Assembly: GCA_012103315.1 (NCBI GenBank)
Contig: WLWZ01000011.1
Location: 11,869-75,868, forward strand
From: Alphaproteobacteria bacterium
GTDB lineage: Bacteria; Pseudomonadota; Alphaproteobacteria; MPNO01; UBA2964
DNA: 64,000 bases
Direction of reading: 5' to 3'
Made by a program: the position numbers and the translations under genes. This document shows, in pieces, positions 36,792-52,953 of this stretch. Under the pieces are notes generated by a model. The model was given only the letters and a program-made list of their open reading frames with translations, had not been told where the DNA came from and searched no databases. Numbering within the stretch: the stretch's first letter is position 1; each line of letters starts with the position of its first letter.

Positions 36792-37982
36792 ATGGAGGGA
36801 AGTGTTTCGGGATCTACGACGGTCACGCATAAAGAAATTGTCGCGTGGGCAACTGCTCTTGTCCCTTTCTTGCGCGAGAAAGCAGCCGAGACCGAAAATC
36901 GTCGCTCGATGTTGCCGGAAGTTTATGATCGTTTAAATGAGGCTGGTCTTCTTGGCATAACGTTGGCGCCGGGTCTTGGGGGGCTTGGTATGGGCTTACC
37001 CACACATCTTGAAGCCGTCATGGAAACGGCGCGTGGATGCGGTTCCACTGCCTGGCTACACAGTCTGATCGGCAATCAAAACTATCTCGTTGGTTGGTAT
37101 CCGCCGCAGGCGCAAAATGAAGTCCGGGCAGCAGGTGGATCACTGTTTACGTGTCTGGTTATGGGCGCAACCATCACGGCGGATAAAGCCGAAGGCGGCG
37201 TACGGCTTACCGGAAGTTGGCCATATGTATCTGGTGTAGACCAGGCGAATTGGTTGATGCTTAGTGCGCATGACCCTGACAACCCGAAACGCAACCTGAC
37301 ATGTCTCATTCCGAAATCTTCAGTCTCGGTAAAAGATGACTGGTATTGCTTTGGTATGAAGGGAACGGGCAGTAAAACGGTCTCGTTAGATGACGAATTT
37401 GTGCCTGATCATCGCGTTTTGTGCTTCCGCGAGGCCGAACAAAACGGAATCCCCGGTTCTGCGATAAACGATGGGCTGCTCTACAAAACGAGCCCCAATT
37501 CTACGGTGTTTGCATTTGTCGTTGCCGCTCCGGCCGTGGGGCTGGCGCAGTGTGCTATTGAAGCTTATCGGGATCGTTTAAAAAGTCGGACCAATGCGCG
37601 GATGCCATCAGCGCAATCAGAGTGGGCGTCTTCGCAGCAACGTCTGGGGCGCGCTAGAACGCAATGTGATATCGCGAAGGCGACAGTGCTTGAGAGTGCC
37701 CACAAACTGATGAAACAGCTGGAGGCGGGACAACGTATTTCGGCTGAAGATCGGATTCGCTATCGCATGGCGATGGTCGAAATCGTGCGTCTCTGTAGTG
37801 AGCTCGTCTATGACCTCTTCTGTGATGCTGGAACAGGCGTCATGATGGACGACAGCGGCTTACAACGTGCTTTCCGTGATATACATGTCTTGAGGAGCCA
37901 CTTCGTGATCCTGCCTGAATTTGCGACCGAGAATGCTGGACGAATACAGCTTGGACTCGATCCAACAGGGCCATTTGTGTAA
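36792..37982 (+). CDS. acyl-CoA-dehydrogenase-fold flavin-dependent monooxygenase (HsaA/DszC/C2-hydroxylase class), paralogue 1
   Basis: ACAD-like N-terminal helical domain, middle beta domain and C-terminal domain, with no CoA-binding Glu base. Similar to group-D two-component monooxygenases. Confidence 0.55.
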   Translation: MEGSVSGSTTVTHKEIVAWATALVPFLREKAAETENRRSMLPEVYDRLNEAGLLGITLAPGLGGLGMGLPTHLEAVMETARGCGSTAWLHSLIGNQNYLVGWYPPQAQNEVRAAGGSLFTCLVMGATITADKAEGGVRLTGSWPYVSGVDQANWLMLSAHDPDNPKRNLTCLIPKSSVSVKDDWYCFGMKGTGSKTVSLDDEFVPDHRVLCFREAEQNGIPGSAINDGLLYKTSPNSTVFAFVVAAPAVGLAQCAIEAYRDRLKSRTNARMPSAQSEWASSQQRLGRARTQCDIAKATVLESAHKLMKQLEAGQRISAEDRIRYRMAMVEIVRLCSELVYDLFCDAGTGVMMDDSGLQRAFRDIHVLRSHFVILPEFATENAGRIQLGLDPTGPFV

Positions 37983-38099
37983 AGCGCTCTCGACTTCGGG
38001 TTTATTTGCCGATGAGGTTGTTAATCCGCTCGTTTTCCTTTCCTATATTTGTAAAGAATAACAAACGGCTTCACCTAAACGTTCAAGAGTGGATTGATT

Positions 38100-39314
38100 A
38101 TGCCTGATGCTGGACACAGCGCGGACGTTTCGCGCGAAGAATTGGCAGAACGTGCCCGTGCGATGGTCCCTGTTTTACAGAATCGTGCGCCCGAGGCGGA
38201 AAAGAACCGGCGGGTGCCGGATATCACGCACAAAGAATTTGTCGAAGCAGGATTTTACAGAATGTTCCAGCCGCGCCGCTATGGTGGCTATGAAATGGAC
38301 TGGGATTGTATTCTGGACGTGGCTTCCGAGCTTGGACGCGGTTGTGGTTCGAGCTGTTGGGTGTTTACGAACTTGACCGGTCAAACTTGGATTAATGGGA
38401 TGAAGGGGGAGCAGGCTCAGGATGACGTTTGGAAGGACAATCCTGACGCCGTCATTGCATCATCTTTCCCAGGCAAAGGCGCATCCGTCAAAGTCGTCGA
38501 TGGTGGTTGGATCGCCGATGGTATGTGGGGATTTTCGAGCGGTATCGATTTTGCCGACTGGAGCAACGTCCAGCTTTTCGTGCCACAGGAAAATGGTCCG
38601 CCGCAGCATCAGTTTGCGCTTGTTCCGAAAACCGATTTCACTGAGATGGTGGATGATTGGAACCCGAGCGGGTTGGCAGCGACGGGTAGCCGGTCTTTTG
38701 TTCTGAAAGAAGTGTTCATCCCTGAACATCGGGCAATATCGGCCGGGCAAGTTCAAGGCGGTCCGACCCCGGGGAGCGATGTTAATCCAATCTCGCTCTA
38801 CAAGATTCCACTATTTGCCATGGGGACCAAACAATTTGCTTCGACAGCGGTTGGTATCGCGTTGGGTGCACTGGATGCCATGTGGGCGGATTTAGCAACG
38901 CGCAAATCGGTGGCCGGGGTAAAACTCAGTGAGCAAGGGACGGTTCAGTCTCGCGTTGCTGAGTCGAGCGCTGAGATTGAAGCAGCGCGGGCACTTTTGC
39001 TGGAAGACTTCCGCGAGAGCAATCTGGTTGCGGCGAGCGATGATCCGCCGACCCAAGAGCAACGGGCCCGCTGGCGCCGGAATAATTCTTTTGCTGGTAA
39101 ACTGTGCGTTCAGGCTGTCGAAAGGCTATTTCCGCTGGCAGGCGGGCGAGGACTAGGGTTTGATAGCCCGTATCAACGCGCAGTCCGCGATGTTCATGCC
39201 GCAACCTCACAAAATAGTATGGCGTGGGATGTCGCGGCGACCACCTATGCCCAGCAGCAGTTTGGTGCGGTGATATCAGATCCGAGATATTTTCCCGACA
39301 CCAAAAAGAATTGA
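38100..39314 (+). CDS. acyl-CoA-dehydrogenase-fold flavin-dependent monooxygenase, paralogue 2
   Basis: Same architecture as 36792-37982, with conserved 'GG.EMDW', 'GMWGFSSG' and C-terminal 'ARWRRNNSF' regions. The start is at the ATG at 38100. Confidence 0.55.
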   Translation: MPDAGHSADVSREELAERARAMVPVLQNRAPEAEKNRRVPDITHKEFVEAGFYRMFQPRRYGGYEMDWDCILDVASELGRGCGSSCWVFTNLTGQTWINGMKGEQAQDDVWKDNPDAVIASSFPGKGASVKVVDGGWIADGMWGFSSGIDFADWSNVQLFVPQENGPPQHQFALVPKTDFTEMVDDWNPSGLAATGSRSFVLKEVFIPEHRAISAGQVQGGPTPGSDVNPISLYKIPLFAMGTKQFASTAVGIALGALDAMWADLATRKSVAGVKLSEQGTVQSRVAESSAEIEAARALLLEDFRESNLVAASDDPPTQEQRARWRRNNSFAGKLCVQAVERLFPLAGGRGLGFDSPYQRAVRDVHAATSQNSMAWDVAATTYAQQQFGAVISDPRYFPDTKKN

Positions 39315-41785: not shown

Positions 41786-42094
41786 TTACTGTTCCGGTGG
41801 CAAGATTTCAACCGTGCAAATTTCTGCTGTTAGGTGACCTCGACCTATATCCTCCAGATGCATGCGCTTTTGCTCGTTGGAAAGAACTTGTCCTAAGCCC
41901 TGCGTCATCATGAGAATGATTGAACGATCTGCCATATCGAGCCAGTAACCGCGTCTGGCCAATTTGCCATCTGCATCGCGTGCAAAAGGATTGTTGGGAT
42001 CTTGTCCCATGTCGGGTTCGTAGAACTTGGCCATGATCTCTATTCGCTCAATTAAACGGAGCGCTAAACTGCCCAGCTTTTCGACTATTCGCAA
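41786..42094 (-). CDS. small hypothetical protein upstream of uup
   Basis: A 102 aa ORF (or 82 aa from an internal ATG). No recognisable motif. Weak call. Confidence 0.2.
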   Translation of the reverse strand: MRIVEKLGSLALRLIERIEIMAKFYEPDMGQDPNNPFARDADGKLARRGYWLDMADRSIILMMTQGLGQVLSNEQKRMHLEDIGRGHLTAEICTVEILPPEQ

Positions 42095-42163
42095 GAGCTC
42101 AGTTTCCCTGAAGCAGTGTTATGCGTTAGCGTGCGAAAAATTTCATTATTGAAAGGTTTGATC

Positions 42164-43045
42164 ATGCATTGGGCAGATAGACGCGAACGGTTTCGGACCC
42201 TTATTGAAGGAGATCGTTGCGTTCATCCTGGGTCGGTGTTTGATCCGATTTCCGCGCGAATTGCCGAGGAGTTGGGCTTTGAAGTTGGTATGTTTGCTGG
42301 TTCAGTCGCGTCCCAAACAGTTTTGGGGTCTCCGGATCTCATCGTGCTCAGCCTGTCAGAATTTGCGGAGCAGGCTTACCGGATTTGTCGCGCCGGTAAT
42401 CTTTCGCTCTTGGTTGATGCCGATCACGGCTATGGCAATGCTCTGAATGTCCGGCGGACGGTTGAGGAGTTAGAAACCGCTGGCGTTGCAGCGCTGACTA
42501 TTGAAGACACTGAGTTGCCGCAAAGTTATGGCAGCGTCGGCGGTACAAGACTTATTTCGATTGAAGAAGGCGTTGGTAAGATGAAGGCAGCGCTTGACGG
42601 TCGTCAGGACCCCAGTCTCGTCATCGCAGGTCGCACGAGCGCCATGGGAATCACTGGGCCCGAAGACACCGTTGCGCGCATAAAGGCCTATGAAGCTGTT
42701 GGTGTGGACGCTGTGTTTTTGTCCGGCGTCACAAACACAGATCAGCTCGCGGTCGTTTCAGATGCGGTAAACATTCCGATTTTTCTTGGTGGGGCAGCCT
42801 CGGCGCTCGGCGATTTGGATTCACTGAGTGCCGCCGGCGTCCGCATTTGTTTACAGGGGCATCACCCATTCCAGGCCGCGGTAAAGGCGACTTATGACAC
42901 GCTGAAAGCGTTACGGGATGGCACGCCGCCCTCAGAGATAGATACGATTGCGCCGAAAGATATGATGAAACGCCTTACTCACGAAGATGATCATCGTAAA
43001 TGGATGCAGGATTGGTTGGGCGGCGAATTAGCCGAGCGGGATTAA
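42164..43045 (+). CDS. isocitrate lyase / PEP mutase superfamily enzyme (methylisocitrate lyase / carboxyPEP mutase / oxaloacetate decarboxylase-like)
   Basis: 'LLVDADHGYGNALNVRRTVEELETAGVAALTIEDT' is the superfamily hallmark. The start is the ATG at 42164 (MHWADRR...). Confidence 0.65.
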   Translation: MHWADRRERFRTLIEGDRCVHPGSVFDPISARIAEELGFEVGMFAGSVASQTVLGSPDLIVLSLSEFAEQAYRICRAGNLSLLVDADHGYGNALNVRRTVEELETAGVAALTIEDTELPQSYGSVGGTRLISIEEGVGKMKAALDGRQDPSLVIAGRTSAMGITGPEDTVARIKAYEAVGVDAVFLSGVTNTDQLAVVSDAVNIPIFLGGAASALGDLDSLSAAGVRICLQGHHPFQAAVKATYDTLKALRDGTPPSEIDTIAPKDMMKRLTHEDDHRKWMQDWLGGELAERD

Positions 43046-43175
43046 TTCTGCGACGGAATTTCAATTCCGAATCGTTGTATTCAACATGCAACGGTTTTAG
43101 TCATTTATTGCAGCCGTCTTTCTGACGGTTATTTTTATAAACTCTTCGCAAGCAGCTTCGGCGGATTGTAAGCCC

Positions 43176-43838
43176 GTGGAGACGGCTTTCGCAGGTACGA
43201 TAGTTTTGTCTGATGAGGAACAGTCAAGTTTCCAGGCAGACTTTCAATCAGCGTACGTCAAGGTCTGTAATTGGTGGGGGCAGAGTTTCACCGGACCGTT
43301 CAAGGTTATTATTGTTTATCGTGGTCCCTCCCGTGCACTGACGCCAGCCTGGAGAGGCAATCGCGGGACAATGTTTTTCCGCAAAAACACCTTGTTGTTT
43401 CGGAACGCCGCGATCACACATGAACTAACGCATGTGTTGGCACCAAACGGAAATCGTTTTCTCGCAGAAGGCTTGGCTGTATACGCTCAAGAGCATTTGA
43501 AAGGCCTCTCTGCATATCCTAATGATGGAGAGGATATTCATACGCTGGCTAAGGAATTTTCTGAACAGGCAAATTTGTCCGATCTTGATGAGCAGGCGAC
43601 GCCGAGTTCTCTCTCCGTCGATGGTCTCAGCGTGAGAGAGGCCTATTTGGTGTCTGGGTCCTTCGTCCGATATCTGATCGAGCGTTATGGAATGAAGAAA
43701 TTCCGCGAACTATATGCCCTTTCGCCCTTCCAGTCATATCGCAGAAATGCTGGCTCTTCGGGAAGGTGGAAAGATGTTTACAAGAAATCACTAAAATCAC
43801 TGGAAGCTGATTGGCGTGCTATGCTGGGAAAACTTTAG
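43176..43838 (+). CDS. putative zinc metallopeptidase-like protein (HExxH), start uncertain
   Basis: 'AAITHELTHVL' is an HExxH motif. The listed start is a GTG. A hydrophobic signal-peptide-like segment is encoded in frame upstream but is separated from an ATG by a stop codon (see findings). Confidence 0.4.
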   Translation: METAFAGTIVLSDEEQSSFQADFQSAYVKVCNWWGQSFTGPFKVIIVYRGPSRALTPAWRGNRGTMFFRKNTLLFRNAAITHELTHVLAPNGNRFLAEGLAVYAQEHLKGLSAYPNDGEDIHTLAKEFSEQANLSDLDEQATPSSLSVDGLSVREAYLVSGSFVRYLIERYGMKKFRELYALSPFQSYRRNAGSSGRWKDVYKKSLKSLEADWRAMLGKL

Positions 43839-44440
43839 CTAACTTTTTGCCGCTGTTTTCGCCATTTGTACCAGGTGAGGAGGGCGAAAGCGGGGGCGCC
43901 AACTGAAGCGCCGACCACAAACGGCATTTGCCAGCCAAGCCAGACAATGGGTGCGAACAAATAAAGCACGTCATCGAAATCAAACCCCCAGATGCCGGGG
44001 TAGGCTTTGTCGCCGGTGTCAGTGTTCATCTGGTCGATCTTTTCGGCATAGATTTCGGCAGCGAAGACACCGGCCGTGCCCAGGGCACCCATCAAGATCA
44101 TCCAGTTTCCAAAATGTCCGTCACGTAGCCCGATGCCGGCGCCGATGAAGAACAGAGAGGTCACGGTAATATCGCAGAACATGTCATAACGATGACCGCC
44201 AGGAGTAATCTTGCCGGTTAACCGAGCTAGTTCGCCATCAGCGCGGTCCATAAAGGCGGAGAACAACCAGAGCCAGCCGCCCCAGATATCCCACTGGCGA
44301 TCACCGATTGCGAAGGCGGAGCAGGCGGCGACGCCTGTAATTAGCCGCAACGTCGTCAAATGGTTCGGTGTGACGGCCGTGTTGGCCAGCGGGGCGATAC
44401 ATATTTTTGCAATTTTATGGGTCCAGGAGTCGCCGACCAT
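43835..44440 (-). CDS. CDP-alcohol phosphatidyltransferase family protein, translationally coupled to hpnK
   Basis: Signature 'DRADGELARLTGKITPGGHRYDMFCD' (D-x2-D-G-x2-A-R...G...D-x3-D). It is a six-TM protein. Its ATG overlaps the hpnK stop. Confidence 0.7.
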   Translation of the reverse strand: MVGDSWTHKIAKICIAPLANTAVTPNHLTTLRLITGVAACSAFAIGDRQWDIWGGWLWLFSAFMDRADGELARLTGKITPGGHRYDMFCDITVTSLFFIGAGIGLRDGHFGNWMILMGALGTAGVFAAEIYAEKIDQMNTDTGDKAYPGIWGFDFDDVLYLFAPIVWLGWQMPFVVGASVGAPAFALLTWYKWRKQRQKVS

Positions 44441-45270
44441 TATATATCCCTGTATGTCGATAGTTTGATATCAGAATTAGCGATTGCCGCCGCAACATCA
44501 GGCGAGATCAAGGCATCGAATTCCTCTTTAAACTTAAAGTCAGACGCCGCAGGGTCCATACCCTCCCAATCTCCCGTAGCGGGATGAGAGAAAATTTCCG
44601 TGACCCCATCACGCAATTTTGTGATGGCGGACAGGAGCTGGGTTTGATTGAGCGTTCCAGTCTCAGTGATGCCAATAATTTGGTCGTTATACCGGATGCC
44701 CGCCCGCCGCAAACGCCAACGCATCAAACTGATCCATGGTGAAAGTAACACCGCTCCCAAGCCACCATTCTTTTCAGCAGGCAGCCGAACCGCTTTGATG
44801 CCAAATTCCGCTGCATTCTCGAGAATGCAGCTGAGCACGATCGGGTGAAGATGCATATGGTTGTGGGCATTCACATGATCGAGCGCCAAGCCGGTATCTC
44901 GAAAGGCTCTGAACTGCGCTCGAATCTCTGCACTGAGTTGGCGCCGTGCCCTAGGTGAAAAGAAGTAGCGAAACCCTGCGCGAACAAGGTTGTCCTCCAA
45001 GAACCCATTTGGCGCAATGGAGGAAAGCTGGTCCGGTGGTAGCGTAGATCTGCCTCGTGCAACGACGATGTGAAGCCCAACACCAAGATCAGGGTGCCGT
45101 TTAGCGCGCGCGATAGCGTCTCGTACTTCAGGCTCGCCGACCATCAGGCAGGTCGCTGTCAAGATTCCGTTGGAATGTGCTGCTTCGATCGCTTCGTTTA
45201 CCGGAATCGATATGCCGAAATCATCACCCGTGACGATTAAGCGTTTCAGACTGCGTTCTCCCGGCCCCAC
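44440..45270 (-). CDS. hpnK: YdjC-like carbohydrate deacetylase, hopanoid-associated HpnK
   Basis: 'LIVTGDDFGIS' N-terminal ChbG/YdjC motif and 'HVNAHNHMHLHP'. It sits directly after a B12-radical-SAM gene and a GT2 gene, in the hpnIJK order. Confidence 0.65.
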   Translation of the reverse strand: MGPGERSLKRLIVTGDDFGISIPVNEAIEAAHSNGILTATCLMVGEPEVRDAIARAKRHPDLGVGLHIVVARGRSTLPPDQLSSIAPNGFLEDNLVRAGFRYFFSPRARRQLSAEIRAQFRAFRDTGLALDHVNAHNHMHLHPIVLSCILENAAEFGIKAVRLPAEKNGGLGAVLLSPWISLMRWRLRRAGIRYNDQIIGITETGTLNQTQLLSAITKLRDGVTEIFSHPATGDWEGMDPAASDFKFKEEFDALISPDVAAAIANSDIKLSTYRDI

Positions 45271-46673
45271 AGGAAGCGGAAGAACTCGACGCCTTCACGG
45301 GCCTGACGCTTCATGACATTCCAGTCTTTGCACATATCGAAAAATAGCGACGCCATCTTCCGCGGCCGGAAGTAGAAGCGTTTGTAAAACACATCAACCG
45401 CTTCGAAGATCTCTTCTTTGCTAAGATGGTCGTAATGCAGAACGCTATTCTGCACGCCGTTCTCCGCAACCAGCTCGTTGCCATCTTCAGCGATGAGCCA
45501 GCCATTCTCGGTTGCTTGCTTGTACAAGAAAGTCCCTGGATAGGCGGCAGGTAGAGAGACCTGAATAGTCTTTGGGTCGATCTCTTGTGCGTATTGGATG
45601 GTCTCTTCGATTGTATCGCGGGTCTCGCCAGGAAGTCCGACAATGAAAGTCCCGTGGATTAGGATGCCGAGCTCGTGACAGTCACGTGTGAACTGCTTGG
45701 CTTTCGTGACCAATATACCTTTTTTGATATTGTTCAGGACTTTTTGATTTCCTGACTCATAGCCCACGAGAAGCAGGCGTAAGCCGTTTTCTTTCATGAT
45801 CATCAAGGTTTCATACGGGACGTTGGCTTTGGCATTACAAGACCATGTGATGCCCAGTTTTCCGAGTTCACGGGCCAACGCTTCGACGTTCTCACGATTA
45901 TCGGTAAGGGTATCGTCGTCGAAGAAGAACTCCTTGATCTCGGGGAAATTATCGCGTGCATATTTAATTTCGGCGGCGACATTATCAACCGAGCGCGTTC
46001 GGTAATTATGACCAGCAATCGTTTGTGGCCAGAGACAAAACGTACAGCGGGATTTGCAGCCACGGCCGGTATAAAGCGACATATATGGATGCAGCATATA
46101 GCCGTTGTAATAATCGCTGGGGACCAAATGTTCTTTGTAGATTGGTGTGACCCAGGGAAGAGTGTCCATATCTTCGATGAGTGGTCGTTTACCGGTAAAA
46201 TGCGGTTTGCCGTCTTTCAGAATAGTAATCCCAGGGACGTCTTCAAGGGGCTTACCCTCAGCAATTTCCTGAATTGTGAAATCGAATTCATTGTCGCAAA
46301 CAAAATCAATTGCCGGCGACGCGATAATTGTCGCCTCGTTATTGATGGCCACGTGGGCGCCACAAAACCCGATCAATAATTCGGGGTTCAGCTCTTTGAA
46401 AAGTTCAGCGACCTTAGTGTCATTCGCAAAAGACGGCGTTGAAGTGTACAGGACCAAGAACTCGTAGTCCTTCGCGTCCTTTAAGACATCGTCCACCGAT
46501 AACCCTCGTGCCGGCGCATCGACCAGCTTGCTGCCGGGGACTAATGCGGCAAGTTGTGCCAGCCATGTTGGGTACCAGAAGGATTTAACTTCCCGTTTGC
46601 ATTGATATCGTGAACCGGCACCGCCGTCATATCCGGCATAAGTCGGTGGGCTCAAAAAGAGAGTCTTCTTCAT
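45246..46673 (-). CDS. hpnJ: B12-binding radical SAM protein, hopanoid-associated HpnJ
   Basis: N-terminal B12-binding-like domain and a radical SAM core 'CKSRCTFC' (CxxxCxxC). At ~475 aa it matches the HpnJ class. Confidence 0.65.
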   Translation of the reverse strand: MKKTLFLSPPTYAGYDGGAGSRYQCKREVKSFWYPTWLAQLAALVPGSKLVDAPARGLSVDDVLKDAKDYEFLVLYTSTPSFANDTKVAELFKELNPELLIGFCGAHVAINNEATIIASPAIDFVCDNEFDFTIQEIAEGKPLEDVPGITILKDGKPHFTGKRPLIEDMDTLPWVTPIYKEHLVPSDYYNGYMLHPYMSLYTGRGCKSRCTFCLWPQTIAGHNYRTRSVDNVAAEIKYARDNFPEIKEFFFDDDTLTDNRENVEALARELGKLGITWSCNAKANVPYETLMIMKENGLRLLLVGYESGNQKVLNNIKKGILVTKAKQFTRDCHELGILIHGTFIVGLPGETRDTIEETIQYAQEIDPKTIQVSLPAAYPGTFLYKQATENGWLIAEDGNELVAENGVQNSVLHYDHLSKEEIFEAVDVFYKRFYFRPRKMASLFFDMCKDWNVMKRQAREGVEFFRFLWGRENAV

Positions 46674-46709
46674 CCTGTATTCCGTATCCCCTGGATCTTG
46701 ATTTCTGGC

Positions 46710-47876
46710 CTACTTGGCAACCTTTAGCCTGTTGTCAGCCAAGACAACGAATTCCCGCTCCCGCCACAGAACTTTCGTTCCACAAAAACTATAAATTCGT
46801 ACCGCGAAGGATAGCATATCCCGCACCGGAATTAACCACGCGCCGCAGGATTTACCATTGGTGAGCCCGCGGCACACTGCATAATGCAAGATTGTCCGCA
46901 TGCCCAGTGCAATCGTCACCGGCATTAAAGACATAGAGATGGAAGCGCCTAAAGTGAAGGCACCAAAGGCGGCGAAAATTGAAAGTGGAAAAATTTCAGT
47001 CGTTATTGAGGCAGCATAGCCACCGGGTTGAACGGAACGAATTGTCCGCGCCCATCTGATTTCGTGGAAAAATACACCTTTAAGGTCTTCTTCCAATATG
47101 ACGTTTTCAACAATGTATGGCACCAAGGCGACATCATAACCCTGGTCGACGACAAACTTTCCAAGCATGTAATCGTCCGCGAGAAAGTCGGCCAAAGCAG
47201 GGAATCCTCCGAAATCCTCTAGCACATTCCGCCGAACAGCCATTGTTGCACCGAAGCAGAATTTTAACTTACCAAACATCGTTGGGATCAGAGCTGACGG
47301 TAAAAACCAGTCATTGACGAACATGGCGCCGAGCCGTGACGCCAGACCTTTCGCAGCAGTGCCGGAATACAGGCACGTGGTGGCACCGACCTTGCTGTCA
47401 CCAAAGGGGGCGGTCACACGTTGTAGATAGTCGGGACTTACCCGCATGTCGCTATCAGAGATAACGAAAATGCCGTGTTTCGCAGTTTTGGCCATATTGG
47501 CAAGGTTGCTGATCTTATAGTTGGATCCGATGATCTGATCATCGACGACCAGAGAGATATCCCGGTCGGGAAATTCCTTTATGACTGCTTCGATAACGGG
47601 AATGGCCGGGTCGGTTTTTTCTCGAACACCGAATATTACCTGGTGTTCAGCGTATTCCTGACGGCAAAAAGAGCGCAAATTTTCGGCCAGTTCGAATTCC
47701 ATGCCACAAATGGGCTTCAAAACTGTCACAGGAAGATTATTTGACGAAGAGACGGGATGTCGTGTCTTCTGACGAAAGACCAAAACGCGACCGGTCGCCA
47801 CGATCATGTACCCCATTGCGAACACGAATAGCGATAGCGCGAGAACAGATAGAACTGTGGGTATGGTGAAAACCAA
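46710..47876 (-). CDS. hpnI: GT2 glycosyltransferase, ceramide-glucosyltransferase-like, hopanoid-associated HpnI
   Basis: N-terminal TM, 'VLKPICGME' then 'ISNLANM' and 'DSDM' (D-x-D). A C-terminal multi-TM region, as in HpnI / ceramide glucosyltransferases. Confidence 0.6.
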   Translation of the reverse strand: MVFTIPTVLSVLALSLFVFAMGYMIVATGRVLVFRQKTRHPVSSSNNLPVTVLKPICGMEFELAENLRSFCRQEYAEHQVIFGVREKTDPAIPVIEAVIKEFPDRDISLVVDDQIIGSNYKISNLANMAKTAKHGIFVISDSDMRVSPDYLQRVTAPFGDSKVGATTCLYSGTAAKGLASRLGAMFVNDWFLPSALIPTMFGKLKFCFGATMAVRRNVLEDFGGFPALADFLADDYMLGKFVVDQGYDVALVPYIVENVILEEDLKGVFFHEIRWARTIRSVQPGGYAASITTEIFPLSIFAAFGAFTLGASISMSLMPVTIALGMRTILHYAVCRGLTNGKSCGAWLIPVRDMLSFAVRIYSFCGTKVLWREREFVVLADNRLKVAK

Positions 47877-47965
47877 ACCGGTAACCTCAACCTTCCGTAT
47901 TAATGCGGGCGCTATGTCTAGCCTGTAACCGCTTCACACACAATCTTTCTAAGGCATTCTGGCGA

Positions 47966-48985
47966 TCAATTCTTATCATTTGATCCAGTCTGCATATTCT
48001 GTGATTCGGCGGAATGACGCTTACGGAGCAACGCTTTTCCTTCAGCATGCTGCCAAAATACCAGGCCGGGAACATCAATTAAGAATTCCCGTATTCGGAT
48101 CGCCAACGAAACAGCGATGGCAACATCGGGCGTCATGCCGACCAGCGCGCCGAGTACGACGAAGGCGCCTTCTTGGACGCCATAGCTGTTGGGCACGATA
48201 AAGGCGGCATCGCTAAGCGTTGAACTCAGACTTTTGAGCATTAGGGCTTCGAGAACGCCAATTGGAAATCCGAGCAACCAAGCGGCTAGCCAAACTTCTC
48301 CGGTTTGTAAAATGAGAGCGCCAAATCGCCACGCAGTAGCGGCGATCAGGGTACGTCGTTCGCGGTAGACCTGAAGAACAATGTCGTCGATCTGATCTGC
48401 CGTATCGATCAAGTCGTTGAGGAATTCCGCTTTTGTCACCTTGTGGGCAGACTTAACGGCGATTCCAAAGATTCCTGCCTTTTGAACTACTAGAAATCCT
48501 GCGACGCCAGCACCAAGGAGAGCCAGCCCAACGGCACCTGCAGCGACCAATTCATTATCCAAAGCCATCATGGAGAGTAGGATCACACCAAGAACGCCCC
48601 AAAAGATGAGGGTAATAACCTGTACAGTTTTGTCGACGATGGTCGACGCACTGGCGTGACGGGCATCAGTTCCCCAAAGCGTCAAAACCCGCGCCTTTAC
48701 GACCTCCCCACCGATGGAGGCGACGGGAAGCAAAGTATTGACGGCACGGCCCATCCATTGAGCGTAGAATGCTTTCCCGAAACTGGGCCGGTGTTCCATT
48801 AGGAATAGTAACTGCCAGCAGCGGGCATTCATCAATACTGTTGGAAACCAGATCGCGGGTACCAGAAGAAGGGCCCAACCTGACGCGGCGAGAAGACCCC
48901 AAATATCGCCTAACCCTTGCCAGGCAATTAAGCCTGTCAGGATTACGAGGCCGATAACCAAGCCAATGTATGACGCGATTTTCAT
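47966..48985 (-). CDS. hpnL: lysylphosphatidylglycerol-synthase-TM-domain-like integral membrane protein (HpnL-like)
   Basis: An ~8-TM protein with the flippase-like LPG_synthase_TM arrangement and a Gly-rich helix 'GAGVAGFLVVQKAG'. It lies 89 bp upstream of hpnI on the same strand. Confidence 0.45.
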   Translation of the reverse strand: MKIASYIGLVIGLVILTGLIAWQGLGDIWGLLAASGWALLLVPAIWFPTVLMNARCWQLLFLMEHRPSFGKAFYAQWMGRAVNTLLPVASIGGEVVKARVLTLWGTDARHASASTIVDKTVQVITLIFWGVLGVILLSMMALDNELVAAGAVGLALLGAGVAGFLVVQKAGIFGIAVKSAHKVTKAEFLNDLIDTADQIDDIVLQVYRERRTLIAATAWRFGALILQTGEVWLAAWLLGFPIGVLEALMLKSLSSTLSDAAFIVPNSYGVQEGAFVVLGALVGMTPDVAIAVSLAIRIREFLIDVPGLVFWQHAEGKALLRKRHSAESQNMQTGSNDKN

Positions 48986-49134
48986 AAGACGCTTTGTTGA
49001 TTTCTCCGACCTCGTGGTTGTAAGCGGAGAGGACAGCCTTGGCCAGAATCTTTGTAACGTTGAGAGACCTATGACCTTGCGTCGATTATGTAGCCCTATT
49101 AGACAGAGCTGGACTCAAAAGTAGTTCGGCGAAT

Positions 49135-49851
49135 GTGACGCATATGACAAACTCAGAAATGCCCCAGGAGGACAGACCCGCCCTTACAAAACCGGAACAG
49201 TTATTTCCGTTGATTAGGCAGTTCTCGTATCGTTTGACCAAGCTACTGATTTTACTGCCATTGACACCTAACCATGTGACGGCTTTGTCAATGCTATCTG
49301 GTTTGGCGGCCTCTTGGTTTTTTGCTCAGGGAACCTATCAGGATGCCGTCATAGGAGGTGCACTGTTTGTACTTGGTTATACCTTTGACAATTGTGATGG
49401 GGAGATCGCACGCTTGAAGAACCTGTCGTCGGAATTTGGCGCTAAGTTCGATGATGTCGTTGATTGGCTGGTGGATAGTGTTTTTTTTACCGCGCTGGGC
49501 TTTGGCACGTGGGTTGCTACCGACAATATGATTTGGTTTTGGTGCGGGGTTGCTGCGACCGCAGGCGCAACGATCGACTATGTTGTTGACTTATTCTATT
49601 ACGCGAAGAAGAGCGCGGCAGAAGATGCCGAGAGCCGGGAAGAACAGGCGGTTGTCCAAAAGACGCCAGAAAACTTAATCGACTGGCTGATTTTGATTTT
49701 TCACAAATTCAGCCGTGCTGATTTCTGCTTTATCGTCTTTGCGCTCGCGATATTCGATATTCTCTGGCTTTTACTGCCTGCCGCAGCAATCGGCGCACAA
49801 GCGTACTGGATCACAGATTTGTTTAATCGCGCCCGAGGCTGGCGAATATAA
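49135..49851 (+). CDS. CDP-alcohol phosphatidyltransferase family protein (second copy)
   Basis: 'DNCDGEIARLKNLSSEFGAKFDDVVD' signature, six TM segments. It is divergent from the hpnL-like gene. Confidence 0.65.
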   Translation: MTHMTNSEMPQEDRPALTKPEQLFPLIRQFSYRLTKLLILLPLTPNHVTALSMLSGLAASWFFAQGTYQDAVIGGALFVLGYTFDNCDGEIARLKNLSSEFGAKFDDVVDWLVDSVFFTALGFGTWVATDNMIWFWCGVAATAGATIDYVVDLFYYAKKSAAEDAESREEQAVVQKTPENLIDWLILIFHKFSRADFCFIVFALAIFDILWLLLPAAAIGAQAYWITDLFNRARGWRI

Positions 49852-49862
49852 AAGCGTTGCTT

Positions 49863-51344
49863 TTAGAGCTTCACGCAGACGTTGCTCATCTCGGTATAGA
49901 ATTCCATCGAATAGGTACCGCCTTCGCGGCCAATCTCTGATTGTTTTGAACCGCCAAAGGGTGTCCGTAAATCGCGCAAAAACCAGCTATTGATCCAGCA
50001 AATACCGACTTCCATCTGTGGCCCCACGCGATGGGCACGGGTAAGGTCTTCTGTCCAGATAGAGCAGGCGAGGCCATAAGGTGTATCGTTTGCCATTGAA
50101 ACGGCTTCTTCTTCCGTATCAAAAGGCGTTATATGGCAGCAGGGACCAAAGATTTCTTCCTGTACTACCGCAGAGTTTTCCGGAAGACCCGTCCAGATCG
50201 TCGGTTCGATCCACGCACCATCGCTCATACCATTCATTTCAGGCACACCACCGCCAGTAACGATAGTTGCGCCTTCTTCAGCGGCCTTATTGTAGTAGCC
50301 GAGGACTTTTTCCTGATGTTCTTTGCTGATGAGCGGGCCAAGCGACGTTGAATCGTCTTCGGGCGCACCGCAAACCAGCCCTTCTGCGCCCTCTTTAAGG
50401 CGGCTAACAAACTCGTCAAAGACCGGTCGTTCGACATAGACCCGCTCCGTACCGAGACAAACCTGGCCACAATTGGCAAATGCGGAGCGCATGGTGCCTT
50501 CGATTGCTTTATCGAGATCGCAATCGGCAAAGACAATAGCGGGGTTTTTACCACCGAGCTCAAAGGACACATCGCGCACGCCAATGGCCGCATTTTGGAG
50601 GATAGCCTCGCCAGTACGGGTTTCACCGGTGAAGGTAATGGCGTCAACATCGGGATGTTTGGTCAGAAATTCACCTGCGGAACCCGGTCCCATACCTTGC
50701 ACAACGTTGTAAACGCCGGGTGGGACGCCGACATCGTTCATGACTTCGCCCAGTAAAGCAGCGGTAGACGGGGTTTCTTCTGAAGGCTTAACGACAACGG
50801 TGTTGCCACAAGCGAGAGCAGGGCCGGCTTTCCATGTCATCAACAACAAAGGCAAGTTCCACGGGCAGATGATCCCGATTACCCCTTTGGGCTTGGTGAC
50901 CGTGTAGTTTAGCGCGCCAGTGCCGTCGGGCGTCGGCATCCGGAAGCACTCGTCATGATGGTTTTTCATCATGTCCGCAAAGACTTCAAAGTTCGCTGCG
51001 CCACGCGGAATGTCGAGGTGGGAAGCCAAACTCACCGGTTTACCAGTATCGGCAACCTCGGCATCTAGAAAGTCATCAAAACGTGCCTGAATGCCACCAA
51101 CGATGGCGGTCACCAGCTTTAGCCGTTCCGGTAGGGGCATTGTGCCCCAAGGACCCTTCAACGCCGCCTTGGCAGCCTTCACCGCATCATCGACATCTGC
51201 TTCGCTCGCTTCATGAACTATTGATAAAAGAGAGCCGTTTACAGGACTGATATTATTGAATTTCTTTCCAGAACCACCAGTACGATATTCACCATTGATG
51301 AAGTTCATTGCTTGGTGATTGTCAGACTTGTCAGGCGTGGCCAC
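49863..51344 (-). CDS. NAD(P)+ aldehyde dehydrogenase (hydroxymuconic-semialdehyde / HpaE-like)
   Basis: 'ELGGKNP', catalytic Cys in 'FANCGQVC', and the Glu in 'LELGGK'. 493 aa. Confidence 0.8.
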   Translation of the reverse strand: MATPDKSDNHQAMNFINGEYRTGGSGKKFNNISPVNGSLLSIVHEASEADVDDAVKAAKAALKGPWGTMPLPERLKLVTAIVGGIQARFDDFLDAEVADTGKPVSLASHLDIPRGAANFEVFADMMKNHHDECFRMPTPDGTGALNYTVTKPKGVIGIICPWNLPLLLMTWKAGPALACGNTVVVKPSEETPSTAALLGEVMNDVGVPPGVYNVVQGMGPGSAGEFLTKHPDVDAITFTGETRTGEAILQNAAIGVRDVSFELGGKNPAIVFADCDLDKAIEGTMRSAFANCGQVCLGTERVYVERPVFDEFVSRLKEGAEGLVCGAPEDDSTSLGPLISKEHQEKVLGYYNKAAEEGATIVTGGGVPEMNGMSDGAWIEPTIWTGLPENSAVVQEEIFGPCCHITPFDTEEEAVSMANDTPYGLACSIWTEDLTRAHRVGPQMEVGICWINSWFLRDLRTPFGGSKQSEIGREGGTYSMEFYTEMSNVCVKL

Positions 51345-51421
51345 TCTACGTCTCCATCATGAATTTATGTGTGCGCAACATGCGTCGATCGTGCCGTTAA
51401 ATCAACTAGCGGCAACGAGAT

Positions 51422-51604
51422 TTAAATTTTCTCGATATAGTAAGCGCCTTCATCGTCGCGCTTGAGAATATCGATCTCCCGCAGTTCGCCCCAGGCGCGC
51501 AGGAAATCTGGCCAGGGGACATCCATATGGTGGTCAACCACGTCGTGGAATTGTTTGGCTTCCGCTTCGAGGTTTGTTTTTAAAGTTGTTGCCAGCGGGC
51601 TCAT
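51422..51604 (-). CDS. 60 aa protein translationally coupled to the UbiD-family decarboxylase
   Basis: Its ATG overlaps the UbiD-like stop (ATGA). It is acidic, with no Cys, so it is not the Zn-ribbon BsdD/VdcD type. Confidence 0.35.
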   Translation of the reverse strand: MSPLATTLKTNLEAEAKQFHDVVDHHMDVPWPDFLRAWGELREIDILKRDDEGAYYIEKI

Positions 51605-52953
51605 TCGAAATCCTCCAGCTTGATGCGGTCGCGGCCGTAATTCTTGATCCGGCGGTACAAAATCTTTGGCACACCTTCGGGGATTGTCGCATCAATCCCC
51701 AGTTTGGCCGTCGTGGGCAGGCCACCTTTGCCAAGAAGCCAAGATTTTACACTCGGATCGATGTGTTTGGCACGCGCCCCTTTGAGGATAACCGCGTCTT
51801 GATCAGCCTGAACCCGAAATGCAATGGCCCAATCCAGCTCATCCGGGTCGTGGATATCGATATCGTCATCCGTAACGATGACATATTTAACCTCCGCCAC
51901 TGACAGTAGCGCTGCGACGGCATTTTTACCCTCGCCGGGACGTTTTTTGATCGAAGCAATAAGCGACCAGTAGCCGCAACTACCCACAGGTGCTCGGATA
52001 TCGACAGGCTGAACACTGGCGATCCGCAAGGCCTGCAAACCTGCGGCTTCCGTGACCGGGGCGGCGAGCCAATCATTCTCCCATGGCATTTGCAGCATAT
52101 AAAAGATCGGGTTTTTCCGGTGCGTAATGCATTTAATCCGAAAAATTGGGTTCCATTTTACATCACCGGAAATCTGGCTGAACTCCCCAAAAGGCCCTTC
52201 ATCAGCTGTCCAGCCAATAGGGAGCAGCTCCCCTTCGAGAACGAGTTCTGCGTCAGCAGGGACACTAAGATCCAAGGTCTTGCATTTAACCATTTCAAGT
52301 GGTTCGCCGCGTAGACCGCCGGCTAGCGCTAATTCGCTGGTATCAATTGGTGCTTTATAGGACGCCGCCAGCATATCCAGCGGATGGACGCCAACCGCGA
52401 TCGCAATTGGCAGTGGTTCGCCCTTATCGAGGGCACGCTGATAGTAAAATCGCATATCCGACGGCGAAACCAGATCAATGCCGGTTTCCTTTGGCGTTCG
52501 ATACATCAGCCGGTAACAGCCAACATTGGGGCCATGCTCAGGGTCTTCGGAAACCGCAAATGTCCCGGAAATATAGGGGCCACCGTCAAATAGATGCATC
52601 AGGGGCAGGGGAATGGACGTCAAATCGACATCATCGCCTTCCATCACGACTTCCTGACAGGGAGCAGTATCGACTGTGATGGGATCAATCGGCCTCGCTG
52701 ATTTTGCCTCAAATTCAAAGGCGATACGGTTCTCGGTACAGCCCATGGCAACGGCGAGGCGTTTGCGCGTGGAGACCAAGGCTGTTGCAACGCGCCAGCC
52801 GGGGTAGCCCTCAATGTTTTCAAACATCGTGGCTTCGTCAGCCTGTTCGCCGAGCGCTGATAATTGGCGGCAATCAACCGGTTTGGTCACTCGTTTTAAC
52901 TCTCCCGCGGCATCGAGATCGTCCAGAAAACTCCGAAACCCTTTATCGGCCAT
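51601..52953 (-). CDS. UbiD-family (prenylated-FMN-dependent) non-oxidative decarboxylase
   Basis: UbiD blocks 'FENIEGYPGWRVA', 'GGPYISGTFAVS', 'NVGCYR', 'PFGEFSQ'. 450 aa. No UbiX-like flavin prenyltransferase is present in the window. Confidence 0.75.
   Translation of the reverse strand: MADKGFRSFLDDLDAAGELKRVTKPVDCRQLSALGEQADEATMFENIEGYPGWRVATALVSTRKRLAVAMGCTENRIAFEFEAKSARPIDPITVDTAPCQEVVMEGDDVDLTSIPLPLMHLFDGGPYISGTFAVSEDPEHGPNVGCYRLMYRTPKETGIDLVSPSDMRFYYQRALDKGEPLPIAIAVGVHPLDMLAASYKAPIDTSELALAGGLRGEPLEMVKCKTLDLSVPADAELVLEGELLPIGWTADEGPFGEFSQISGDVKWNPIFRIKCITHRKNPIFYMLQMPWENDWLAAPVTEAAGLQALRIASVQPVDIRAPVGSCGYWSLIASIKKRPGEGKNAVAALLSVAEVKYVIVTDDDIDIHDPDELDWAIAFRVQADQDAVILKGARAKHIDPSVKSWLLGKGGLPTTAKLGIDATIPEGVPKILYRRIKNYGRDRIKLEDFE

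Follow-up and report, generated by a model that had tools for sequence, protein, structure and literature searches.

Two CDP-alcohol phosphotransferases in a conserved cassette with hopanoid side-chain genes: a candidate head-group transferase-plus-flippase module of marine proteobacteria

Hopanoids, major membrane lipids of bacteria, are also key biomarkers in geology. In a 64,000-nucleotide stretch of the alphaproteobacterial contig WLWZ01000011.1 (hereafter, the window), four hopanoid side-chain genes (hpnL, hpnI, hpnJ, and hpnK) form an operon with a gene for a cytidine diphosphate (CDP)-alcohol phosphotransferase, CDP1, and a second gene of this family, CDP2, lies divergently from hpnL. 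What could two such enzymes be doing around a hopanoid operon? CDP-alcohol transferases had been placed outside the described hpn gene set by the initial annotation of the window, and the hpn literature examined indeed mentions none. The six genes probably constitute one functional unit, a hopanoid head-group transferase-plus-flippase module set on the operon for bacteriohopanetetrol (BHT) glucosamine and BHT cyclitol ether. More tentatively, this module could give rise to an undescribed class of hopanoids in marine alpha- and gammaproteobacteria, with a phosphate- or phosphonate-linked head group on the glucosamine/cyclitol-ether side chain, which the two CDP-alcohol phosphotransferases would install and HpnL would flip. 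The parts belong to known families; it is their combination, their clade restriction, and the implied product that have not been described.

Identity and conservation of the cassette

The hpn genes were scored against the curated NCBIfam cut-offs and the transferases against the Pfam gathering score. HpnL (253.9 bits against a cut-off of 195.65, TIGR03476) and HpnK (335.3 against 232.6, TIGR03473) stand above their thresholds, as do HpnI (406.8 against 310, TIGR03472) and HpnJ (742.5 against 577.6, TIGR03471), for which the models are equivalogs, the HpnJ match being full-length (2-472). All four assignments made at first inspection were thus upheld, and the ORF map agrees with the coordinates given there. 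The corresponding Pfam scores are 210.5 bits for HpnK (PF04794), 145.7 for HpnI (PF13506), and 107.9 for HpnL (PF03706). By homology, HpnI would add N-acetylglucosamine (GlcNAc) to BHT and HpnK would convert BHT-GlcNAc into BHT-glucosamine. The overlap of the hpnK stop with the start of the transferase gene, also described at the outset, is borne out by the junction TAATG at 44442-44438, in which one base is common to both codons, and hpnJ and hpnK overlap by 25 nt. With regard to the transferases, CDP1 (54.5 bits) and CDP2 (44.5 bits) exceed the PF01066 gathering score of 22, and both retain the complete D(x2)DG(x2)AR(x8)G(x3)D(x3)D motif, which is conserved across 87 sequences for CDP1 and 48 for CDP2.

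The HpnI-HpnK-HpnJ pathway to BHT glucosamine and BHT cyclitol ether was worked out genetically in Burkholderia cenocepacia (Schmerk et al. 2015, in the summaries of PMC12583986 and PMC13459092, the latter also for the role of HpnJ). The window resembles this system, with orthologous genes above the cut-offs, an identical gene order, and hpnL alongside. However, unlike the canonical hpnIJK loci of Paraburkholderia, Caballeronia, and Acetobacteraceae (flanks of up to 10 kb), the operon is bracketed here by two CDP-alcohol phosphotransferases and its HpnL is of a separate subfamily.

Conservation was followed in two surveys, (a) 80 hpnJ loci on genome contigs, each from a different species, with flanks of up to 10 kb on each side, and (b) 80 CDP1-centred loci from metagenomes, 63 with over 900 bp of DNA upstream of CDP1 and 35 with over 6.2 kb. 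In survey (b), genes of the CDP1 family adjoin an hpn gene in every one of the 63 informative loci, the gene directly upstream being hpnK in 58, hpnL in 3, and hpnJ in 2, and 32 of the 35 longer loci contain the full set of six, with CDP2 on the strand opposite hpnL. The transferase is, therefore, kept beside hpnK in relatives of the window. The six-gene unit also occurs in Shumkonia mesophila, in a metagenome-assembled genome (MAG) from ENA, and in a gammaproteobacterial MAG, in completely different flanks, and the closest relatives are Tara Oceans contigs. Clustering of the flanks across cassette loci yielded no further universal partner and the unit is, thus, a discrete six-gene cassette.

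In survey (a), a CDP-OH open reading frame (ORF) accompanies 12 of the 80 hpnJ loci, all of them within the 13 loci whose HpnJ is most similar to that of the window, the thirteenth lying on a contig too short to tell. No ORF with the CDP-OH motif was found in the fetched flanks of the remaining loci, 46 of which have at least 3 kb on both sides and which include Paraburkholderia, Caballeronia, Acetobacter, Komagataeibacter, Eremiobacterota, Acidobacteriota, and Methylomirabilota. Moreover, in a neighbour-joining tree of HpnJ, one bipartition holds 62 of the 64 CDP-positive loci and includes only two scored as CDP-negative, a truncated contig and the locus L018. The linkage of the transferases with hpn genes recurs far beyond chance, and the cassette is confined to one near-monophyletic, mostly marine lineage of alpha- and gammaproteobacterial hpnIJK operons, so it is not a general feature of these operons.

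The flippase-like protein follows the same division. Compared by phmmer with the HpnL of the window, the HpnL proteins of the main CDP-positive clade score 326-607 bits, those of four rearranged, divergent CDP-positive loci (L161, L162, L164, and L165) 75-192, and those of CDP-negative loci 42-178, with a sharp break below the main clade. The HpnL of the window thus belongs to a distinct subfamily that travels with the CDP genes. The similarity of HpnI to that of the window is continuous, from 349-711 bits in CDP-positive loci to at most 423 in CDP-negative ones.

Some variants and companions of the cassette were also observed. In three loci (L092, L118, and L152), CDP1 comes directly after hpnJ and hpnK is missing; if these arrangements are real, the deacetylation step would be dispensable or encoded elsewhere. 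In 17 loci a gene for a class-I S-adenosylmethionine (SAM) methyltransferase, and in 14 one for a 4'-phosphopantetheinyl transferase, immediately follows CDP1 in convergent orientation (L004:9412-10182, L156:1391-2245, L155:2155-2910, and about 15 others); they are lineage-specific, being found in gammaproteobacterial and island-type lineages, and both are absent from the window. Supplementary Table S8 of a recent preprint (10.1101/2025.07.29.667474), in the main text of which a search showed no mention of CDP-alcohol transferases, contains under label 6 a CDP-alcohol phosphatidyltransferase family that occurs 1409 times at a distance of up to 20 ORFs from shc, and also a family of CDP-OH/MobA-like nucleoside triphosphate (NTP)-transferase fusions. 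The numbering guide of that table appears partly scrambled and misaligned, and the label is unconfirmed in the rows seen, so the entry was set aside as a lead only.

The two transferases and their fusion partners

CDP1 and CDP2 share 36% identity over 89 residues, in the N-terminal half only, and are distant paralogues. The initial annotation was right in seeing a divergent CDP-alcohol transferase facing hpnL, but the description of it as a second copy does not hold, and its start is also probably different. The CDP2 ORF opens at GTG 49135 (238 aa) and an NCBI protein of 235 aa from an alphaproteobacterial MAG (P0121) is 100% identical, so that translation probably begins at ATG 49144. The best CDP1 match in a collection of 5.8 billion proteins is only 85%, compared with this exact CDP2 protein, and CDP1 may, thus, be uncalled in the public annotation of the MAG. 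A third, CDP1-like paralogue, possibly an inactive one, adjoins CDP2 in one locus (L152:12-641, minus strand); its catalytic motif has another residue in place of the final Asp (…GYYFDYAAG).

Against the models for archaetidylinositol-phosphate, phosphatidylinositol-phosphate, and DIPP synthases (NF040950, NF045883, and NF041135, with cut-offs of 180, 170, and 580), CDP1 scores 43.4, 25.1, and 19.9 bits and CDP2 61.2, 47.9, and 58.4 bits, all below the cut-off. CDP2 also falls short of the PgsA (TIGR00560, 21.3 against 109.1) and PssA (TIGR00473, 29.4 against 107) models, with which CDP1 gives no match. Judged by cut-off, neither protein belongs to any named phospholipid-synthase family. The AlphaFold2 model of CDP1 (predicted local distance difference test 84.3, predicted template-modelling score 0.81) points to the six-transmembrane-helix fold of CDP-alcohol phosphotransferases. 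Its closest solved fold, according to Foldseek, is that of AF2299 (TM score 0.81), with IPCT-DIPPS at 0.71, and the best sequence-profile matches in PDB are these same proteins, at 29.6 and 30.7 bits, respectively. The enzymes PgsA and PssA, which use CDP-diacylglycerol, are the most distant solved relatives, both by sequence and by fold.

CDP1 shares with Archaeoglobus fulgidus AF2299 (PDB 4o6m/4q7c) and with IPCT-DIPPS (4mnd) the signature motif and, in its model, the six-helix core; unlike them, it has no cytosolic domain, and it is 17-21% identical to them in a match that spans the N-terminal half only. Reading the acceptor from the PDB and NCBIfam matches was, therefore, rejected, since the alignments cover only the CDP-binding half. 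The C-terminal half contains an invariant acidic loop, DxGxKAYxGxxGFDFDD, between predicted helices 113-138 and 155-167, and because this loop is its own, the acceptor of CDP1 probably differs from those of AF2299 and IPCT-DIPPS. Such a loop might suit a cationic acceptor, for instance the free amine that HpnK would make.

An exhaustive profile search with the CDP1 family, which gave 102 cluster representatives at E <= 1e-30, retrieved several fusion proteins. A CDP1-family domain is joined to a preceding HpnL in P0262, P0274, and P0350, where the HpnL part scores 260-267 bits, above the cut-off, and to a following LPG_synthase_TM domain in P0247 (48% identical to CDP1), P0267, and P0282. In P0313, it is joined to HpnN (TIGR03480, 805.6 bits against 751.85), and in P0303 to an NTP-transferase domain. 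The pairing of two CDP-OH domains also recurs, since P0241 is a tandem double CDP-OH protein, and the tandem homologue P0391 adjoins HpnA (517 bits) and HpnL (298 bits). At the level of domain architecture, these fusions link the CDP1 family with HpnL and with the family of hopanoid exporters. Two further relatives were noted, a CDP1-LPG_synthase_TM fusion followed by a sulfotransferase (L169:2079-4981) and a CDP1-like protein whose C-terminal domain is weakly similar to the Fe/2OG enzyme BesD (P0322), and the transferase-flippase module may serve several head-group chemistries.

MprF is a lysyl-phosphatidylglycerol synthase with an N-terminal flippase domain (PF03706). The HpnL of the window likewise has a flippase-type PF03706 domain and shares its operon with the presumed head-group transferase, and the fusions in relatives, which occur in both orders, reproduce the synthase-plus-flippase architecture of MprF. 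Nevertheless, the synthase would be a membrane CDP-alcohol phosphotransferase, where MprF has a cytosolic transferase that depends on aminoacyl-tRNA, a hopanoid is presumed to replace phosphatidylglycerol as substrate, and the two functions are separate genes in the window.

Hopanoid context, proposed chemistry, and alternatives

Cassettes within hopanoid islands were found in relatives of the window. Squalene-hopene cyclase (SHC) genes beside CDP-positive cassettes were missed by a DxDDTA scan of ORFs of at least 500 aa and were found by phmmer with a verified SHC. In four loci (L155, L156, L159, and L160), the genes after the cassette are those of squalene synthase and SHC (TIGR01507, 786 bits in L156), and then come an HpnG-like gene in L156, L159, and L160 and HpnN in L156 and L159; in L154, the whole cassette is visible and the locus ends at squalene synthase. 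HpnN also lies beside CDP1 in L153 and L161 (968.8 bits in L161), and in L152 this place is taken by a truncated HpnN-like ORF. Shumkonia mesophila is a cultured carrier of the complete cassette, and its genus has two Shc and one HpnH (PMC12583986, Table 2). Furthermore, according to a recent survey (10.1101/2025.07.29.667474), HpnI and HpnJ are confined to genomes with both SHC and HpnH. The fusions with HpnL and HpnN and the shc/hpnG/hpnN islands support the earlier suggestion that a hopanoid head group is modified; the coupling is restricted to one clade, and phospho-alcohol, phosphono, and phosphatidyl chemistries are all conceivable.

From the gene identities, the linkage, the clade restriction, the fusions, and the island contexts, we infer a donor, an acceptor hydroxyl, and a product as follows. 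By orthology to Burkholderia cenocepacia, HpnI, HpnK, and HpnJ would successively form BHT-N-acetylglucosamine, BHT-glucosamine, and BHT cyclitol ether at the cytoplasmic face. CDP1 and CDP2 would then take a polar head group from a donor activated with cytidine monophosphate (CMP) or CDP and attach it, through a phosphodiester or phosphonate linkage, to a hydroxyl of the hopanoid, and HpnL, as a homologue of the MprF flippase domain, would move the product to the outer leaflet, from which transporters of the HpnN type could export it. If this conserved and widespread marine cassette does yield such a hopanoid, ocean lipidomes could be searched for a further class of lipid, and hopanoid decoration would be tied to phosphorus, and possibly phosphonate, metabolism. 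HpnL, which two recent large studies explicitly state to be of unknown function, would also receive its first assigned function, with a concrete transferase-plus-flippase model. The prediction can be tested now, since cultured Shumkonia mesophila has the complete cassette.

The donor seems to be a small activated head group, such as CMP-aminoethylphosphonate, CDP-ethanolamine, or similar, rather than CDP-diacylglycerol. We lean to this option because of the fusion partners of CDP1 relatives and because the closest solved relatives are AF2299 and the CDP-inositol enzyme IPCT-DIPPS. Pathways for 2-aminoethylphosphonate (AEP) head groups comprise phosphoenolpyruvate (PEP) mutase, phosphonopyruvate decarboxylase, AEP transaminase, a cytidylyltransferase of the PntC/LicC type, and a transferase of the CDP-alcohol family. 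In likeness to these, P0390 (45% identical to CDP1 over the full length) and P0303 (36%) are fused to a cytidylyltransferase and reside in clusters with pathway genes. In the P0390 cluster, a true PEP mutase with the canonical EDKLFPKTNS is joined to an NTP transferase and accompanied by an HpnL above the cut-off (271 bits), a PhnY-like hydroxylase, an AEP-type aminotransferase, and a phosphonopyruvate decarboxylase; L166 has a similar phosphonate cluster. The PhnY-like hydroxylase of L167 has close homologues (286 and 266 bits) in the CDP-positive hopanoid islands L156 and L159.

A further locus, L168 (1-13092), joins genes similar to those of AEP pathways to a hopanoid island with SHC, HpnH (524.6 bits), HpnA (476.8 bits), an HpnG-like gene, and IspH, and has no hpnIJK. 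Its AEP-like pathway combines a PEP-mutase-like/NTP-transferase fusion with an AEP-type aminotransferase and a split phosphonopyruvate decarboxylase; one CDP-OH transferase, of 204 aa, overlaps an HpnL-like gene, and another is joined to an NTP transferase. Several of these phosphonate genes are just below their cut-offs and the mutase motif is non-canonical (EDNLFPKRCS). This gene content suggests phosphono-hopanoids in another lineage. Unlike all these clusters, the window cassette has neither a phosphonate nor a cytidylyltransferase gene. On a speculative version of the scheme, one paralogue would work in reverse on bulk phospholipid to make the CDP-head group, which the other would pass to the hopanoid; the net result would be a CMP-catalysed head-group swap, and this would explain both the presence of two paralogues and the lack of a cytidylyltransferase.

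Some genes near these clusters deserve mention. A PhyH-family protein lies between hpnG and hpnN in CDP-positive islands (L156:6830-7603 and L159:7267-8019), with close homologues beside the CDP-OH/cytidylyltransferase fusions of phosphonate clusters (L167:11353-12120 and L166:9213-9980); its best NCBIfam match is the methylphosphonate hydroxylase PhnY, at 184-199 bits, below the cut-off. In the window, an ORF of the ICL/PEP-mutase family (42116-43045, plus strand) is convergent with the cassette, and homologues lie directly after CDP1 in the closest relatives (L086, L087, L090, L093, and L094). It is not a true PEP mutase and was rejected as a phosphonate source, given that the EDKxxxxxNS motif is absent and that its TIGR02320 score is 81 bits, against a cut-off of 319.55.

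Several observations weigh against the proposal of a hopanoid head-group module. The 64-kb window contains no shc, hpnG, hpnN, or hpnA, and no hpnH at E <= 1e-8; hopanoid synthesis in the source genome is thus assumed on the basis of relatives. L018 is a member of the clade that truly has no CDP1 after hpnK, and a few cassettes are devoid of hpnK. The similarity of CDP1 to PDB and NCBIfam entries lies mainly in the nucleotide-binding N-terminal half and says little about the acceptor. The fusion proteins are unannotated metagenomic gene calls, some of which could be mis-called. Within 10 kb, L166 and L167 show no hopanoid gene except HpnL, and relatives of CDP1 may, therefore, act on other lipids too. 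Neither a cytidylyltransferase nor any other gene for making a donor is part of the cassette or recurrent in its flanks, so a small-head-group donor would have to be made elsewhere. Finally, no phosphate- or phosphonate-bearing hopanoid is described in the literature searched; three papers there contain both hopanoids and CDP-alcohol phosphatidyltransferase, and neither term stands in any of their titles or abstracts.

The lack of a donor-making enzyme in the cassette or its flanks would be accounted for if CDP1, CDP2, or both attached phosphatidyl from housekeeping CDP-diacylglycerol, the universal bacterial CDP-alcohol, to the BHT polyol or aminocyclitol, yielding a three-tailed hopanoid-phospholipid hybrid in a reaction comparable to eukaryote-type cardiolipin or phosphatidylinositol synthesis. 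The best NCBIfam matches include inositol-phosphate enzymes dependent on CDP-diacylglycerol or CDP-archaeol, whose acceptor is a cyclitol, like the head of BHT cyclitol ether. Since the cassette has no donor enzyme and the structural similarity is limited to the nucleotide-binding half, CDP-diacylglycerol remains a serious alternative. However, the scores with those inositol-phosphate models are far below cut-off, the closest solved relatives are AF2299 and the CDP-inositol enzyme IPCT-DIPPS, with PgsA and PssA the weakest, and the full-length relatives of CDP1 that are fused to cytidylyltransferases in phosphonate clusters point to small donors; phosphatidyl transfer is, thus, considered unlikely.

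Two other explanations dispense with a covalent modification of hopanoids. To our knowledge, all characterised bacterial PF01066 members make glycerophospholipids or soluble inositol phosphates, and the nearest models are the phosphatidylinositol-phosphate and archaetidylinositol-phosphate synthases, so that the transferases might make an ordinary or unusual glycerophospholipid, for example one like phosphatidylinositol, co-regulated with hopanoids for membrane packing. Nevertheless, CDP1-family genes never stand apart from an hpn gene in the informative loci, fusion proteins connect them with HpnL and with the HpnN family of hopanoid transporters, and CDP1 and CDP2 miss every phospholipid-synthase equivalog cut-off by a wide margin, which makes co-regulation without a covalent link rather improbable. 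It is even harder to credit that, in this clade, the acceptor of the HpnI, HpnJ, and HpnK homologues and of the transferases is a lipid other than a hopanoid and that the hopanoid label of the cassette is misleading. The window and most cassette loci do lack shc and hpnH nearby, and L166, L167, and L169 contain CDP1 relatives with no other hopanoid genes in view. However, HpnI similarity is continuous between CDP-positive and CDP-negative loci, the four hpn genes pass the hopanoid-family cut-offs, some cassettes are inside shc/hpnG/hpnN islands, and Shumkonia has both Shc and HpnH.

Coordinates and surroundings of the locus

Table 1. Cassette features in the window, with positions counted from its first nucleotide.
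Feature	Position	Strand	Basis
CDP1, 201-aa CDP-alcohol phosphotransferase, last operon gene	43835..44440	-	PF01066, catalytic motif DRADGELARLTGKITPGGHRYDMFCD
hpnK, YdjC-type deacetylase	44440..45270	-	TIGR03473, PF04794
hpnJ, hopanoid-associated B12/radical SAM protein	45246..46673	-	TIGR03471
hpnI, GT2/GT21 glycosyltransferase	46710..47876	-	TIGR03472, PF13506
hpnL, MprF-flippase-like membrane protein (LPG_synthase_TM), first operon gene	47966..48985	-	TIGR03476, PF03706
hpnL/CDP2 divergent intergenic region, presumed shared control region	48986..49143	.	geometry only
CDP2, 235-aa CDP-alcohol phosphotransferase, divergent from hpnL	49144..49851	+	PF01066, catalytic motif DNCDGEIARLKNLSSEFGAKFDDVVD

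With respect to control elements, an Rfam scan of 42000-52000 gave no match, hence no B12 or other riboswitch. The intergenic region between hpnL and CDP2 has a single sigma-70-like match (49060-49089, plus strand), within chance expectation, and promoter-like matches in general are at chance level. Terminator-like matches number 22, compared with 7.9 expected from shuffles, and none is located at the operon ends.

The cassette is surrounded in the window (36792-39314 and 49863-52953) by catabolic genes of the aromatic or steroid type, among them two HsaA-like flavin monooxygenases, a UbiD-family decarboxylase, and a 2-hydroxymuconic semialdehyde dehydrogenase (852 bits, above the cut-off), and these neighbours bear no relation to the cassette in other genomes.

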